The position numbers and the translations under genes were made by a program. Under the pieces are notes generated by a model. The model saw only the letters and a list, made by a program, of their open reading frames with translations, did no database searches and was not told the DNA's origin. From Actinomycetes bacterium (GTDB lineage: Bacteria > Actinomycetota > Thermoleophilia > Solirubrobacterales > Solirubrobacteraceae), in NCBI GenBank assembly GCA_021851525.1, contig JAJZDA010000001.1, positions 3,493-67,492 of the forward strand: a stretch of DNA of 64,000 bases, in the 5' to 3' direction. Shown in pieces: positions 6,353 through 58,025 of the stretch. Within the stretch, counting starts at the first letter, position 1. Every line of letters begins with the position of its first letter.

Positions 6353-6426
6353 CGCGGGGTGGAGCAGTCTGGTAGCTCGTCGGGCTCATAACCCGAAGGT
6401 CGCAGGTTCGAATCCTGCCCCCGCTA
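6353..6426 (+). tRNA. tRNA-fMet (initiator, anticodon CAT)
   Basis: CGCGGGG acceptor with unpaired C1:U72, three G-C pairs closing the anticodon stem (GGG-CTCATAA-CCC), GGTTCGAATCC T-loop; CCA not encoded. Confidence 0.98.
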
Positions 6427-6428
6427 CT
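6383..6428 (+). repeat. Left att core (within the intact tRNA)
   Basis: ggctcataacccgaaggtcgcaggttcgaatcctgcccccgctact, identical to 57980-58025. Confidence 0.95.
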
Positions 6429-6429
6429 C

Positions 6430-6457
6430 AAAAAGGTCCGCTTTTGCGGGCCTTTTT
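6430..6457. terminator. Intrinsic (likely bidirectional) terminator after tRNA
   Basis: aaaaaggtccgc-tttt-gcgggccttttt hairpin with A and T tracts on either side. Confidence 0.85.
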
Positions 6458-6495
6458 GCGTTTATTAGCCACAACTTCGGTTGACAATGGCGATT

Positions 6496-6581
6496 TGGCT
6501 ACCACATTTGGCTACCAAGTGAATTGGTGGAGATTCACGCAGAAATCCGGTTTATTGGGTCCATAACCCGAAGGTTGTAGG
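6496..6581 (+). repeat. TGGCTACCA x2 followed by a degenerate att core copy (relic attR-like junction)
   Basis: TGGCTACCA at 6496-6504 and 6509-6517; cataacccgaaggttgtagg (6562-6581) matches the tRNA core at 18/20. Confidence 0.75.
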
Positions 6582-6684
6582 CCTCTCGCCGTCCTGGGCG
6601 CTCGGCTGAGGAAGCGCGCCTCCCGCGTCGGTGAACCGTCCGCCTCGGATACAGGATCGGCGGGCAGCTGTCGATGTAGACGCG

Positions 6685-7506
6685 ATGAGCACCTACGCCC
6701 CGGCAAAGCGTTTGCGGCTGCGGCGCGCCGATGTCTGTGCTGTGTGCGGCCGCGGCTTGGATGTCGGGGTAGAGGCGCTCTGGCATCGGGGGCCGCGTGT
6801 CGTGACCTGCGTGGGATGCGACCTTGACGGCGCGACAGTCGTCGTCGCCGGCGAGCCGGGCGCCAGCGCCCTGCGGGAGTACGGGCGCCGTCAGATGCGC
6901 CGCGAGGACGATGCGCGCGAGAAGCTCGGCCGTGTCGGCGTGACGCTCGCGCGGGTGATCGCGCCGCCAGCGACCACGCAGGCGTGGAAGCGTGGTGGGG
7001 AGGGCGAGCGTCGCGTCGGTGCGCGGCTTGAGAAGCTGCTCGCCGGAACCGAGGTCAGGCTGCTGCATGATCGTCTCGTGCCAAGTGCTGGGCGGCAAAA
7101 CATCGACCACATCGCTGTCGGCCCCGGCGGCGTGACCGTGATCGACACCAAGAACTACCGCGGCAAAGTGCGGGTGCAGCGCGTCGGTGGCCTGTTCGCG
7201 CCGCAGCGCACGATCCTGTCGATCAAGGGCCGTGACCAGACGAAGCTCGTCACCAGCGTGCAGAATCAGGTCGAGCTGCTGCGCAGCGCGCTGGCCGCTG
7301 CGGGAGAGCGGGACGTCGATGTGCGTGGCGTGCTCTGCTTCGCGAACGTCGACGGACTGCCGCTGCTTGGGCACCCCACCCTGAACGGGATCCTGATTGA
7401 CGGTGCGCGGGCTACGGCAAAGCTCGCTCGGCGGCCTGGACCGCTGAGTGGCGAGCGCGTGCAGCAACACTGGGCGCTCATCGGTAAGACGTTTCCGCCG
7501 GCTTGA
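6685..7506 (+). CDS. NERD domain nuclease with N-terminal CxxC...CxxC zinc finger
   Basis: CAVCG...CVGC, GGEGERRVG, LLHD, NIDHIAVGPGGVTVIDTKNYRG NERD motifs; start trimmed to ATG 6685. Confidence 0.85.
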   Translation: MSTYAPAKRLRLRRADVCAVCGRGLDVGVEALWHRGPRVVTCVGCDLDGATVVVAGEPGASALREYGRRQMRREDDAREKLGRVGVTLARVIAPPATTQAWKRGGEGERRVGARLEKLLAGTEVRLLHDRLVPSAGRQNIDHIAVGPGGVTVIDTKNYRGKVRVQRVGGLFAPQRTILSIKGRDQTKLVTSVQNQVELLRSALAAAGERDVDVRGVLCFANVDGLPLLGHPTLNGILIDGARATAKLARRPGPLSGERVQQHWALIGKTFPPA

Positions 7507-7560
7507 CCCTGCGATTGATCGCGTGTCGAGATCTTCCAACCTACCGGGAGGACGTGTGTG

Positions 7561-55615: not shown

Positions 55616-55756
55616 CGGTTCGATCCTGGAGGGTGCTTTGCGCTCCGGAAACGCCGTCACGACTTCGGCCGGCTATTCACAGAAGCCTACGACCACCCGC
55701 AACGAGCGCGACGGCTCTAGATCCCGTAGCCAGTACTGCTCAGTCGGGGTGGCGGG
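55616..55756 (-). pseudogene. Remnant of a RelE/DUF4258-like toxin C-terminus
   Basis: Translates EQYWLRDLEPSRSLRVVVGFCE*PAEVVTAFPERK with an internal TAG at 55673-55675 and no start codon; lies directly upstream of DUF2283. Confidence 0.45.
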
Positions 55757-56143
55757 CTAGTGACGCAGGTCCTCGATAGTGCAGGGAGGATCCGGAAGCT
55801 CGATGAGTTCAGGATCGCCCGTGAGCAGGATGACGTCGTGCGCCGCGGCCGTCACGGCAGCGAAGCAATCTGCGAGTGCGATCGGTGCGCGCGCTTTCAG
55901 TCGCGCGGCCTCGATCATGCGGGCGGTGCCCGGGAGGTCAGGAGAGAGCGTGCGCCTGAGCGCCGCAAGTGTTTCGTCCGCCGCGGCGCGGCCGTGGTCA
56001 CGCTCGACCCGGTAGTACACCTCGACGAGGTTGATCCAGCTAACTACCGGACGGGTCTCGATTAGCTCGTCGATACGCTGGAGCGCGGGCTGCTCGCCAT
56101 CAAGCCACGCGAGGATAGCCCAGGAGTCCAGGCAGACGCTCAC
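55757..56143 (-). CDS. vapC: VapC PIN-domain toxin
   Basis: VCLDSWAILAW, NLVEVYY, ALADCFA, LLTGDPE acidic tetrad. Confidence 0.9.
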   Translation of the reverse strand: MSVCLDSWAILAWLDGEQPALQRIDELIETRPVVSWINLVEVYYRVERDHGRAAADETLAALRRTLSPDLPGTARMIEAARLKARAPIALADCFAAVTAAAHDVILLTGDPELIELPDPPCTIEDLRH

Positions 56144-56355
56144 CGCGGCTCGCCGGCGCGATCCTCGAGCAACCGAGCTGCCATGCCACTGCGCGCAAAC
56201 TTGCCGCCGAGCCGTTGGCCGACGCGGTTGGCAGTAATGATGATGTGGTTGTCCTGTACCGCGACCTCGACCTCATCGCCAGGATGTAGTTGCACGCGAT
56301 CACGGATCGCTTTCGGGATCACGACCTGGCCTTTCTGGCCGATCTTGCTGGTCAT
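56140..56355 (-). CDS. vapB: AbrB/MazE/SpoVT-type VapB antitoxin
   Basis: SKIGQKGQVVIPKAIRDRVQLHPGDEVEV; TATACT 8 nt upstream suggests a leaderless start at ATG 56355. Confidence 0.9.
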   Translation of the reverse strand: MTSKIGQKGQVVIPKAIRDRVQLHPGDEVEVAVQDNHIIITANRVGQRLGGKFARSGMAARLLEDRAGEPR

Positions 56356-56482
56356 ACCTGGCAAGTATAACTAGAGCCTCCGGCGCCTGGCACGATCCCC
56401 ATTCGCATCTCCAAGTCGACGGGAGGGGATCGGTTCGGCAACGATCACCAGTTCCTGGCCGAGCCACGGGGCGCCCCCAAGA

Positions 56483-57826
56483 TCACGGGTCCGATTCGTC
56501 GTCTGCGAGGAGTGCGCTCGTAGCGCCGGTCGATCGCAGCGCATCCGTGAACTTGGCGGCCAGCTCGGTTGCGGGCCGGGCGTGCAGGTAGCGGCTGGTT
56601 GTCGTGAGCTGCGCATGGCCCATCGCTTCCTTGACGCTCACTAGGTCGATGCCACCAGCGACCAGCATGGAGCCGTAGCTGTGACGGAGGTCGTGCCAGC
56701 GCAGCGGCCGCAGGTCGGCGGCGTCACGAGCACGCTTGAAGCGGCGGCGCAGCGCTGAAGCGTCGAGTCGTCGGCCGACGAGGTTGCAGAAGACGAGATC
56801 CTCCGGGTGGGTGAAGTGGCGTCGCTGCGTGAGGCGCTCGAGCGCGGCGGCGGCGTCGTCCCCCATGGGGACTCGGCGAATCTGGCCTGACTTGGTGGTG
56901 GTCTCGAGTCCGTCTGAGATAGCGCGGCTGATCGTCAACGCCGAGCCCTCCCAGTCGACGTCGACCCAGCGCAGCGCCAAGAGTTCGCCCATGCGAACCC
57001 CCGCATATGCCGAAACGCGTACAGCTTCGGCATCGCGCTCGTCCTCCTCCACCTCAGCGTCGAGTCGTTCGTACCCATACGGCCTGTGGAGCCCGCGTGC
57101 GAGCGCGCGCGCGAGGATCTCGATCTCGTCGTAGGTGTAGAACACAAGAACACCCGGCGCCGCTGCGCGACGTCGATCGGCGAACTTCGCTGGATTCGTC
57201 GGAAGGCTGAAAGCGCCAGGGCGCATCCCGTAGTTGAAGACAGCGCAGATGATCTCGCGATAGTGGTTGACGGTGCGAGGTGTGACTCCGGCCTTTGCGA
57301 CGGTGCGGAGCACCTGCTCGATCTCGGCTGTGGTCACCTTGGTGGCGGGTTTGTCTCCGAGCGCGCCCATGATGTAGCCCGCAGTCTTGCGGCGGCCGCG
57401 GCCGTGAGGAGTTCCAGGTTCGGCGAGCAGAGAGCGGTGGGAACGCATGGTGGTCGGCTTTGCGCCCTTCACGGTCTCAAGCCAGTGCAGATACGCGTGT
57501 GCGACTTCGCGAAAAGTCGCGCCGTTGATTCGCCGTTCTTCGGCAACGCGTTCGGCATCTTGTTTCTCAGCCACGTAGCCGGCGATGATCTCCGCCGCCC
57601 GGACGTGCGCAGCACGCGAGTCGAAGTACCCAGGCTGGACCCGACCACTCCGGGCTTTGAATGATCCGGTCTCGGCATCGGGCTCGAGCCAGGCGCGGCC
57701 AACCCGTCGCATGACCTGGCGTCCCGCGTAGCGGAACTTGACCTCATAGAAGACGCGACCGTTCTGCTCACGGGGGATGAGATTGAACACCGGAAGTGTC
57801 ATATGAGATGTCATTGCGGTCACCAT
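56483..57826 (-). CDS. Tyrosine recombinase / integrase
   Basis: GVRMGELLALRW (R), TKSG (K), HDLRH (HxxR), MGH...TSRY (H, Y); start ATG 57826 or 57802. Confidence 0.95.
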   Translation of the reverse strand: MVTAMTSHMTLPVFNLIPREQNGRVFYEVKFRYAGRQVMRRVGRAWLEPDAETGSFKARSGRVQPGYFDSRAAHVRAAEIIAGYVAEKQDAERVAEERRINGATFREVAHAYLHWLETVKGAKPTTMRSHRSLLAEPGTPHGRGRRKTAGYIMGALGDKPATKVTTAEIEQVLRTVAKAGVTPRTVNHYREIICAVFNYGMRPGAFSLPTNPAKFADRRRAAAPGVLVFYTYDEIEILARALARGLHRPYGYERLDAEVEEDERDAEAVRVSAYAGVRMGELLALRWVDVDWEGSALTISRAISDGLETTTKSGQIRRVPMGDDAAAALERLTQRRHFTHPEDLVFCNLVGRRLDASALRRRFKRARDAADLRPLRWHDLRHSYGSMLVAGGIDLVSVKEAMGHAQLTTTSRYLHARPATELAAKFTDALRSTGATSALLADDESDP

Positions 57827-57857
57827 ACCAGCCTCACTTGACACTTTGCCCCGAAGA

Positions 57858-57897
57858 TGGCTACCAACTCCGAGTTTGGCTACCAGATTGGCTACCA
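57858..57897 (+). repeat. TGGCTACCA x3, probable integrase arm-type binding sites
   Basis: Direct copies at 57858, 57877 and 57889, between the integrase start and the right att. Confidence 0.75.
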
Positions 57898-57979
57898 AAC
57901 AGGCATGAAATGGCCGCAATACCAGGTCATAACTCGACGAAACTTCACGCAAATTGCGGGAACTAGAAACCGGTGTTTC

Positions 57980-58025
57980 GGCTCATAACCCGAAGGTCGC
58001 AGGTTCGAATCCTGCCCCCGCTACT
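57980..58025 (+). repeat. Right att core (duplicated 3-prime half of tRNA-fMet)
   Basis: 46-bp identity to 6383-6428; tRNA 5-prime half absent. Confidence 0.95.

Follow-up and report, generated by a model that had tools for sequence, protein, structure and literature searches.

A probable integrative mobilizable element at the initiator tRNA gene of an uncultured soil actinobacterium, with a mainly defensive cargo

The window analysed here, a 64,000-nucleotide stretch of contig JAJZDA010000001.1 (assembly GCA_021851525.1), carries at positions 6383-58025 a putative integrative mobilizable element (IME), hereafter the element, which begins inside a tRNA gene and ends in a repeat of that gene's 3' part. 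The genome is a draft metagenome-assembled genome (MAG; 3.44 Mb in 267 contigs, 90% complete) of an uncultured, high-GC soil actinobacterium, whose taxonomic placement follows the labels of the closest relatives. Genes were called by third-position GC, with approximate starts, and open reading frames (ORFs) were scanned with the hidden Markov model (HMM) libraries of Pfam, PADLOC, NCBIfam and PHROGs; tRNAs were sought with ARAGORN and Rfam, and repeats as exact direct repeats within the window. The functions given for products of the element are homology-based throughout. Genome comparisons used an order sample of 151 genomes (this one and 150 others), with 9 of the 151 belonging to the genus. 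The ends of the element carry the following features, with the evidence in brackets.

6353-6427, plus strand: initiator-type tRNA-Met(CAT), the integration target (ARAGORN; Rfam RF00005, 65.5 bits)
6383-6428, plus strand: attL core, the left copy of a 46-bp repeat and the 3' part of the functional tRNA (exact repeat)
6429-6520, plus strand: P' arm (sequence and arm motif statistics)
56483-57952, minus strand: tyrosine integrase (Pfam Phage_integrase 8.3e-31)
57857-57979, plus strand: P arm with three arm-type sites, ATGGCTACCA at 57857 and TTGGCTACCA at 57876 and 57888 (motif statistics)
57980-58025, plus strand: attR core, the right copy of the 46-bp repeat (exact repeat)

The tRNA-Met gene is the only tRNA gene that ARAGORN finds in the window and has the traits of an initiator, an unpaired C1/U72 and three G:C pairs closing the anticodon stem. 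Since the two further tRNA-Met genes in the assembly have fully paired acceptor stems and are elongator-like, it is the sole initiator tRNA gene found in this draft genome. A first-pass annotation of the window, made from the sequence alone, had described an exact 46-bp att duplication starting just before the anticodon loop, and this description is confirmed: the two copies are identical over 46 nt, lie 51,597 bp apart from start to start and occur nowhere else in the 3.44-Mb assembly. The 5' end of the repeat is 4 nt upstream of the CAT anticodon and 2 nt upstream of the anticodon loop; its 3' end lies one base beyond the tRNA 3' end called by ARAGORN, a layout as expected when an element crosses over in the anticodon loop and supplies a replacement 3' tRNA half.

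The integrase ORF, of 489 codons, starts 28 bp from the right repeat and encodes a complete catalytic set (R320, K354, H420, R423, H446 and Y465, ORF numbering); relatives at 96%, 85%, 78% and 64% identity lie beside tRNA-fMet-like cores. The P' arm combines TTGGCTACCA at 6495-6504 and 6508-6517 with a TTGACAAT motif and a hairpin that resembles a tRNA terminator (~6431-6460). The pattern (T/A)TGGCTACCA has five matches in the window against 0.82 expected, a count reached in 0 of 100 shuffles, and all five (6495 and 6508; 57857, 57876 and 57888) fall inside the element at no more than ~125 bp from a core, a position and pattern that mark these repeats as putative arm-type integrase sites. The 96% identical integrase is encoded at L018, a locus in a MAG labelled Conexibacteraceae, where DNA identity is 91.5% over 1504 bp and the homology is bounded exactly by the integrase stop codon at one end and by the core at the other. 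On its other side the L018 core is followed, as attL is here, by the terminator-like hairpin, the TTGACAAT motif and the first arm site, and the P arm is kept both in L018 and in another relative's locus, L020. Because the left P' arm and the right-end integrase belong to one integrase family, the whole 51.6 kb is the only unit with matched, intact-looking ends. In two of the related loci (L018:9851-10110 and L021:9932-10012) integrase, P arm, core and P'-arm/terminator stand in attP-like order within large chromosomal contigs, an arrangement that represents a tandem junction or else an attP assembled as such; in L018 the core departs from any tRNA-fMet by 6 mismatches in its 3' part.

Within the element, a six-gene mobilization backbone surrounds a short repeat-rich region.

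37428-40190, minus strand: MobF (TrwC-type) relaxase-helicase (Pfam TrwC 1e-62, AAA_30; NCBIfam MobF NF041492, 202 bits at a cut-off of 100)
40203-41732, minus strand: VirD4/TraG-type coupling protein (Pfam T4SS-DNA_transf 8.4e-29, TraG-D_C 1.3e-22; NCBIfam VirD4-like)
41729-41992, minus strand: Xis-like helix-turn-helix (HTH) protein of the HTH_17 family (Pfam PF12728 1.4e-13)
41968-42110, no strand: eight GGGACG iterons and a CCGCAA...TTGCGG hairpin between the divergent xis and XRE genes (sequence)
42108-42866, plus strand: XRE-family HTH regulator (Pfam HTH_3/HTH_31; PHROGs repressor families)
42868-44220, minus strand: membrane protein with a pleckstrin homology (PH)-like domain and a winged helix-turn-helix (wHTH), no family match (probably 390 aa, from an ORF ending near 44040)
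44140-44583, plus strand: DUF4282 small membrane protein (Pfam PF14110 6.5e-20)

The Pfam and NCBIfam matches confirm the integrase, Xis-like HTH, MobF and coupling protein genes named in the first-pass annotation. The relaxase has the His triad H215, H231 and H233 and a Walker A motif at 513 (ORF numbering), with a true start that is likely to lie near M52 of the ORF, and the coupling protein has an N-terminal membrane helix and the Walker A motif GPSQSGKT. The genes for the Xis-like protein, coupling protein and relaxase overlap or abut and form one minus-strand operon with xis first. Upstream of it, the GGGACG iterons are mostly 10-11 bp apart, 8 of the window's 52 copies being packed within 100 bp; this region is kept in the relatives' loci L061, L065 and L067, with an indel of about two repeats, and it is the best candidate for an operator and/or the origin of transfer (oriT). 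The membrane PH/wHTH protein has ~30 homologues, which share their contigs with coupling-protein homologues. Its AlphaFold model, built on the homologue alignment (mean pLDDT 74.8), predicts a hairpin of two membrane helices, a PH-like beta domain and, at the C-terminus, a winged helix of MarR type; a Foldseek search with the model returned PH domains and MarR-type regulators only, at low whole-chain TM-scores, and no component of a type IV secretion system (T4SS) was among the matches.

This backbone recurs with different cargo. Public metagenomes contain more than 2,000 relatives of the coupling protein at E <= 1e-20, the closest of them 74-85% identical and some labelled Solirubrobacteraceae or Trebonia, and in three independent contig families the six backbone genes are syntenic at 54-89% amino-acid identity, with other defence genes downstream of the relaxase: a SNF2/DUF1156/GmrSD/DUF499-HEPN cluster in one contig family and type I restriction-modification (R-M) in another. 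Identities in relatives are 75-80% for the Xis-like protein, 72-84% for the XRE regulator and 67-89% for the DUF4282 protein. Extending the L061/L067 relative along metagenome contigs reached no integrase. A genome of the same genus (G150) holds a 33.7-kb element between its tRNA-fMet gene and a partial copy of the tRNA 3' end, with a 64%-identical integrase at the distal copy, Xis, coupling protein and TrwC genes 54-66% identical to those described here, and none of the present element's cargo. The relaxase has no close plasmid relative in the plasmid database, the best matches (MobF of Methylobacterium and Mycobacterium) being <30% identical. More broadly, many genomes of the order have extra copies of the tRNA-fMet 3' part, commonly two or three, downstream of the gene, as in the arrays of 8.8 + 7.8 kb (G033) and ~29 + 21 kb (G012), the 14.4-kb unit with a TrwC relaxase (G047) and the several units of G007. 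The gene is thus a general integration hot spot with tandem accretion across the order. In G046, a related MAG, seven or more genes or gene fragments encode TrwC-type relaxases; they are 38-49% identical to the element's relaxase and mostly lie in small elements without a coupling protein, and relaxase-only hitchers seem to proliferate in this group.

The element carries no mating pore that profile searches can recognise. No ORF in it matches VirB4, TraC, AAA_10, FtsK/TraB, Rep or Prim-Pol in the four HMM libraries, and genome-wide searches with PF03135, PF12846 and PF01580 found nothing inside it; PF01580 exceeds its family cut-off only at a 791-aa FtsK-like ORF on another contig (C85), and two weak sub-threshold matches also lie outside the element. 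The first-pass statement that VirB4/pilus, FtsK-TraB and Rep genes are absent therefore holds. Clear membrane segments in the element are confined to the coupling protein, the DUF4282 protein and the PH/wHTH protein.

The remainder of the element is mainly defence and candidate defence genes, listed here from left to right.

6631-7506, plus strand: NERD-domain nuclease, candidate defence (Pfam PF08378 9.8e-16)
8099-9956, plus strand: PDC-M70 candidate pair, TIM-barrel M70B and nucleotidyltransferase M70A (PADLOC PDLC04779 2.9e-57, PDLC04778 6.5e-76)
10262-12262, plus strand: XseA-like exonuclease VII (ExoVII) large subunit and a small XseB-like ORF at 11876-12262 (Pfam Exonuc_VII_L 2.1e-49)
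12434-16240, minus strand: IetS S8 protease, 12434-14806, and IetA AAA ATPase, 14819-16240 (PADLOC IetS 3.1e-32, IetA 5.6e-56; Pfam Peptidase_S8, AAA)
to 17586, minus strand: 467-aa gene without assignment, in the same orientation as IetAS
18243-23043, plus strand: four co-oriented genes, the last a short superfamily 1 (SF1) helicase at 21607-23043, candidate defence module (Pfam AAA_12/AAA_30, helicase)
23067-27665, plus strand: TmtA (Tiamat-type), 1532 aa, sacsin-like ATPase with NOV_C (PADLOC PDLC03969, 1235 bits; Pfam SACS, NOV_C)
27662-33404, plus strand: type III-like R-M pair (Pfam ResIII, N6_N4_Mtase; PADLOC MTase_III 5.1e-250, 830 bits)
33431-36169, minus strand: stand-alone UvrD helicase fused to a PD-(D/E)XK nuclease, GajB-like (Pfam UvrD-helicase 2.1e-51, PDDEXK_1 3.8e-25)
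36374-37213, plus strand: HNH endonuclease, candidate restriction gene (Pfam HNH_2; PADLOC PDLC04132 6.9e-18)
45227-46270, plus strand: Fic-domain protein, SoFic (Pfam Fic 4e-17; PADLOC SoFic 5.7e-33)
46681-54816, plus strand: complete type II Wadjet (PADLOC JetA2 1.9e-188, JetB2 2.6e-135, JetC2 1397 bits, JetD2 1.7e-127)
55340-56364, minus strand: DUF2283 protein, 55340-55660, and a VapC(PIN)/VapB(MazE-AbrB) pair, 55757-56364 (Pfam)

PADLOC recognises six systems (Wadjet II, IetAS, Tiamat, type III-like R-M, SoFic and PDC-M70), which take up 49% of the element's length. About six further candidates (the NERD nuclease, ExoVII-like pair, UvrD-PD-(D/E)XK protein, HNH endonuclease, SF1-helicase block and VapBC) bring the share to ~75%, and mobility genes occupy 16.5%. 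The first-pass annotation had assigned most of the length to defence, which is roughly right once the nuclease, helicase and toxin-antitoxin candidates are added to the PADLOC systems; its figure of more than ten defence modules was an over-count, as six systems are recognised by models and the others are candidates.

Among the recognised systems, the Wadjet genes (JetA2 46681-48276, JetB2 48273-49475, JetC2 49472-53557 and JetD2 ~53540-54816) are co-oriented and match near full length, with the Pfam domains DUF2397, DUF2398, SbcC_Walker_B, DUF3323 and DUF2399. IetA and IetS are adjacent and co-oriented, the IetS match being moderate. The PDLC03969 match spans TmtA residues 7-1518, and the tmtA stop codon overlaps the start of the following Res-like helicase gene, so that the two are translationally coupled. 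Tiamat is defined as a single gene, and the coupled helicase falls outside this definition. The type III-like R-M pair consists of that helicase (27662-30709), a ResIII protein whose nuclease end is TnsA-like, and of an N6/N4 methyltransferase (30720-33404); the REase_III match is weak (2.7e-06 over 43 residues), the TnsA-like nuclease end standing in its place. The stretch 23067-33404 may therefore be one fused Tiamat/R-M operon and not two separate systems.

The candidates are more diverse. The UvrD-PD-(D/E)XK protein has partial PADLOC matches to GajB/RTasHel, and the PADLOC scan gave no GajA match that would complete a Gabija system. A homologue of the NERD nuclease, 48% identical, adjoins the backbone in L065 (tblastn). 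The XseB-like ORF weakly matches the small subunit of ExoVII in the PDB (E 0.0048) and was preferred to a gene call on the opposite strand (11957-12394, minus strand), which was dropped; an ExoVII-like pair is unusual cargo for a defence island. The first three genes of the 18243-23043 block match nothing in Pfam, NCBIfam, PHROGs or PADLOC, and the block is a candidate for an undescribed defence module, while the DUF2283 gene and VapBC form a probable stabilisation module. Nine ORFs of the element have no match in NCBIfam, PHROGs or PADLOC. GC content over the element is mosaic (0.60-0.72, mostly 0.60-0.69), with both flanks at 0.70-0.73 and host-like stretches inside the element around the relaxase and Wadjet genes.

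From these features we judge it probable that positions 6383-58025 are one integrative mobilizable element, belonging to an undescribed family from uncultured soil Actinomycetota. Its genes are those of an IME, namely a recombinase with att repeats at a defined target, its own relaxase and no VirB4-class ATPase. The first-pass structural reading, a tRNA-fMet integrative element with its own integrase, Xis, MobF and coupling protein, no pore and a defence-dominated cargo, is supported by the anatomy (matched ends, intact catalytic motifs, absence of pore genes) and by the relatives, which combine the backbone with other cargo and use the same tRNA site. In the proposed mechanism, the integrase would have recombined attP with the anticodon-loop region of the sole initiator tRNA-Met gene; because attP carries a copy of the 3' 46 nt of the tRNA together with a terminator, the tRNA gene stays intact, and integration would have left the 46-bp repeat at the far end. 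Excision by the integrase together with the Xis-like protein would yield a circle of 51,597 bp, and the MobF relaxase would nick oriT, probably in the iteron/hairpin region upstream of the xis-coupling protein-relaxase operon. The element's VirD4-type coupling protein would then dock the relaxase-DNA complex onto a pore provided in trans by another element or locus. The cargo is interchangeable and mainly defensive. One chassis carries six defence systems here and quite different ones in relatives, from which the family emerges as a vehicle that shuffles whole defence sets.

The check for a T4SS elsewhere in the genome, recommended by the first-pass annotation, had a mixed outcome: a T4SS-like locus is present, but it is relaxase-less, conserved across the genus and not an evident conjugative helper. 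The VirB4 family PF03135 matches in 0 of the 151 order genomes, this one included, which we do not read as absence of T4SSs because the model misses the split actinobacterial VirB4 that NF042935 (SCO6880 family) and the NCBIfam VirB4 models find. On contig C161 (83-4919) the gene order is DUF6112, a VirB6-like 604-aa protein with ~8 membrane segments, an SCO6880-family protein (309 bits, cut-off 60) and a VirB4-like ATPase that matches the C-terminal half of the VirB4, TraC and CD1110 models; its continuation on C117 (1481-3171), with a VirD4-like gene and a 124-codon gene, is deduced from synteny in seven other genus genomes. It is present as a single copy in 8 of the 9 genus genomes and has the same chromosomal neighbours in all 8, an extracytoplasmic function (ECF) sigma factor, a 361-codon gene and a PMT_2 glycosyltransferase on one side and, by eye, a glutamate decarboxylase-like gene on the other. 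Its proteins are 48-83% identical across the genus, similar to the neighbouring genes, and in the genus it has no link to any MobF relaxase. In three genomes of other families (G164, G152 and G098) a TrwC relaxase gene is found 15-25 kb from the same T4SS genes, the arrangement of true integrative conjugative elements (ICEs).

The genus locus resembles the cmdABCDEF/SCO6871-6884 region of Streptomyces coelicolor in being a conserved chromosomal cluster in which genes for membrane proteins accompany those for a VirB4-like ATPase and an SCO6880-like protein, and differs from it in also having a VirD4-like gene. Mutants of S. coelicolor cmdABCDEF are affected in differentiation and chromosome segregation, and a type IV-like channel was only a speculation of the authors (PMC2782261). 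The chromosomal locus may serve as a resident mating pore or may have a function unrelated to conjugation, which raises the question of whether a conserved chromosomal cmd-like T4SS locus serves such hitchers as their mating pore. Doubtful as we hold it to be, the MobF + VirD4 family might depend on a resident, vertically inherited, relaxase-less pore of the cmdABCDEF/SCO6880 type and not on a mobile helper. An SCO6880-type locus occurs in 4 of the 6 order genomes with this type of coupling protein and TrwC relaxase, against 7 of the remaining 145 (Fisher p = 2e-4, a value uncorrected for phylogeny and heavily confounded by it); with the genus left out, the co-occurrence is 1 of 3 against 2 of 139 (p = 0.06). 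Two other leads were rejected. A second MobF relaxase (1298 aa) is encoded on the 15-kb contig C162 together with a Prim-Pol, a DUF2637-HTH protein and a small resolvase, but no pore genes lie within these 15 kb, and we regard the contig as another mobile element or a plasmid fragment and not as a demonstrable helper. A TraG-D_C match on C260 was dismissed as a coupling protein, having no BLAST similarity to the other two coupling proteins and neighbours that by eye are RecJ- and RelA/SpoT-like.

Several observations weigh against the interpretation as a mobilizable element. The 90%-complete draft contains no clear conjugative helper, its sole VirB4-like genes being those of the genus-conserved chromosomal cmdABCDEF-like locus, and the assembly is itself a draft MAG. 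When the joined flanks were compared against 40 relatives, no clean empty site was found among them, the relatives being too distant for this to be informative (left flank at 65-69% DNA identity, in two genomes); the search otherwise matched the tRNA only. The internal relic att-like sequences described below speak of an accretion history in which smaller or other units may once have moved. The cargo itself raises a further difficulty. A study of type I Wadjet reports restriction of circular DNA up to ~100 kb (bioRxiv 10.1101/2022.10.04.510915), and since the element encodes a Wadjet, its own 51.6-kb circle could be a target. By analogy, and if type II acts alike, an element moving as a 51.6-kb circle with Wadjet aboard would need to escape its own cargo. 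How an excising element of this size coexists with its own circle-cutting Wadjet is thus a question that the locus raises; possible escapes are that type II acts differently, or that a short-lived or single-strand-transferred intermediate evades it.

Two features at the margins of the element bear on its history.

6486-6581, plus strand: degenerate copy of the arrangement arm sites - ttcacgca - agaaaccggt - core, as at the right end (repeat search, alignments)
58033-58131, minus strand: 3'-end remnant of an insertion sequence (IS) transposase gene, outside the element and 7 bp beyond attR (87% identity to C263:30806-30915)

The core-like part of the degenerate copy, at 6555-6581, is identical to the tRNA at 22 of 27 positions, and the arrangement is the relic of an earlier junction and hence of past accretion. 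A weaker core-like stretch at 17737-17763 (19/27 to the tRNA) led to no conclusion. Beyond attR, the IS remnant indicates a rearranged right flank, and this rearrangement may explain the missing synteny. The remnant reads ISL3-like by eye (...HSAQALIALAMLTL...), and the frame of a fuller copy of the transposase gene on C263 ends in ...HSAQALIALAMLTLSGL, which looks like the C-terminus of an ISL3-type transposase. In the nearest syntenic relative (G003) the left flank is syntenic and the tRNA contains the identical 46 bp, and the DNA downstream is unrelated and without counterpart in the element's own genome; the HI0933-like flavoprotein gene of the right flank occurs in 2 of the 40 relatives, away from their tRNA-fMet genes.

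Four other explanations were weighed. The one that survives best, though we think it unlikely, is that the segment is an immobile, decayed remnant of a conjugative or mobilizable element which has lost its pore genes or its helper and persists as a fixed, vertically inherited defence island. Such a remnant would account for an element without pore genes in a genome without an obvious conjugative helper, and the IS remnant just past attR and the internal relic att-like copies do suggest an old, rearranged locus. Against decay, however, the integrase, Xis-like protein, coupling protein and relaxase are all full length with their catalytic motifs present, all 46 bp agree between attL and attR while the relic has kept 22 of 27 positions, and the arm sites are intact at both ends; the presence of 74-85% identical backbone relatives in several genomes with other cargo implies recent spread.

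It is quite improbable that the segment is a tandem composite of two or more accreted elements whose mobile unit is smaller than 51.6 kb. One integrase and only two intact cores are present, the left P' arm belongs to the family of the right-end integrase, and the internal core-like copies that a composite would invoke (6555-6581 and, more weakly, 17737-17763) are too decayed (27 nt with 81% and 70% identity to the tRNA) and have no counterpart of the core's 3' half, even though the mosaic GC, and the tandem tRNA-fMet arrays common in relatives such as G033, G012 and G007, are what accretion would produce. Less probable still is a minimal route of self-transfer, in which the coupling protein and the DUF4282 and PH/wHTH proteins would act as a translocation apparatus without a classical T4SS. 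Its appeal lies in the strict conservation of a six-gene backbone that includes two membrane proteins and is linked to this clade of coupling proteins, and in the 2 of 6 order-sample genomes with this coupling protein/TrwC type that are without a detectable SCO6880-type T4SS; yet MAGs often miss plasmids, which are potential helpers, and the modelled PH/wHTH protein resembles a DNA-binding regulator or anchor. We know of no precedent for relaxase-dependent transfer without a VirB4-class ATPase. An assembly artefact, in which the island and one flank come from another organism and were joined at the conserved tRNA, is hardly credible: the MAG does comprise 267 contigs and the tRNA-fMet sequence, with 91-100% identity throughout the order, could have joined contigs when k is small, but the attR junction shares just 46 bp with the tRNA amid unique sequence, the flanks are alike in GC (~0.70-0.73), and the element would still sit in the tRNA-fMet of some genome, with the same architecture found in relatives on contigs of hundreds of kilobases.

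Read as an integrative mobilizable element, then, the segment can be set beside the known classes. Its closest counterparts are the IMEs with a VirD4 of their own that are treated in a 2017 review by Guedon et al. (PMC5704250), with which it shares an integrase, tRNA att repeats, its own relaxase and VirD4, the absence of a pore, and toxin-antitoxin and R-M cargo. The VirD4 of such IMEs is proposed to replace the helper's coupling protein (PMC5704250). The review describes own-VirD4 IMEs only with MobC relaxases (putative, in Streptococcus) and no canonical MobF IME as then known (PMC5704250). The present element differs in combining MobF with VirD4, in its host among uncultured Actinomycetota, in its far larger size (51.6 kb) and in a cargo that is mostly defence. 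It would thus add a MobF + VirD4 type to the IME catalogue, the review having included no IME with a MobF relaxase and none from actinobacteria with a coupling protein of its own.

With the actinobacterial T4SS-type ICEs of G164, G152 and G098 the element has in common a MobF relaxase, a VirD4-type coupling protein and chromosomal integration. Those ICEs carry DUF6112, SCO6880-family and VirB4-like genes within 15-25 kb of the relaxase, whereas the element has none of these and no recognised VirB4-class ATPase or pore genes, and its coupling protein is only 31-36% identical to theirs. It resembles the actinomycete integrative and conjugative elements (AICEs) pSAM2 and SLP1 in its tyrosine integrase, Xis, tRNA 3'-end target and attP arm-type repeats. 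AICEs transfer double-stranded DNA by an FtsK-like TraB and carry Rep. Profile searches found neither Rep nor TraB, the latter also mentioned in PMC5704250, in the element.

As a carrier of defence genes, the element is like the hot spots of mobile defence islands in having a conserved mobility backbone with swappable defence beside the relaxase/oriT region. SXT ICEs carry hot spots of defence cargo. Defence systems have also been reported near oriT of ICEs and IMEs (bioRxiv 10.64898/2026.01.13.699239). The element differs from these hot spots in phylum, backbone and site and in an unusually high load, six systems including the anti-plasmid Wadjet. A limited search of the literature on conjugation in Solirubrobacterales turned up only a plasmid survey, and the element illustrates how defence systems travel in poorly studied soil Actinomycetota. 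It would belong to a known class, the IMEs, perhaps as a minor variant.

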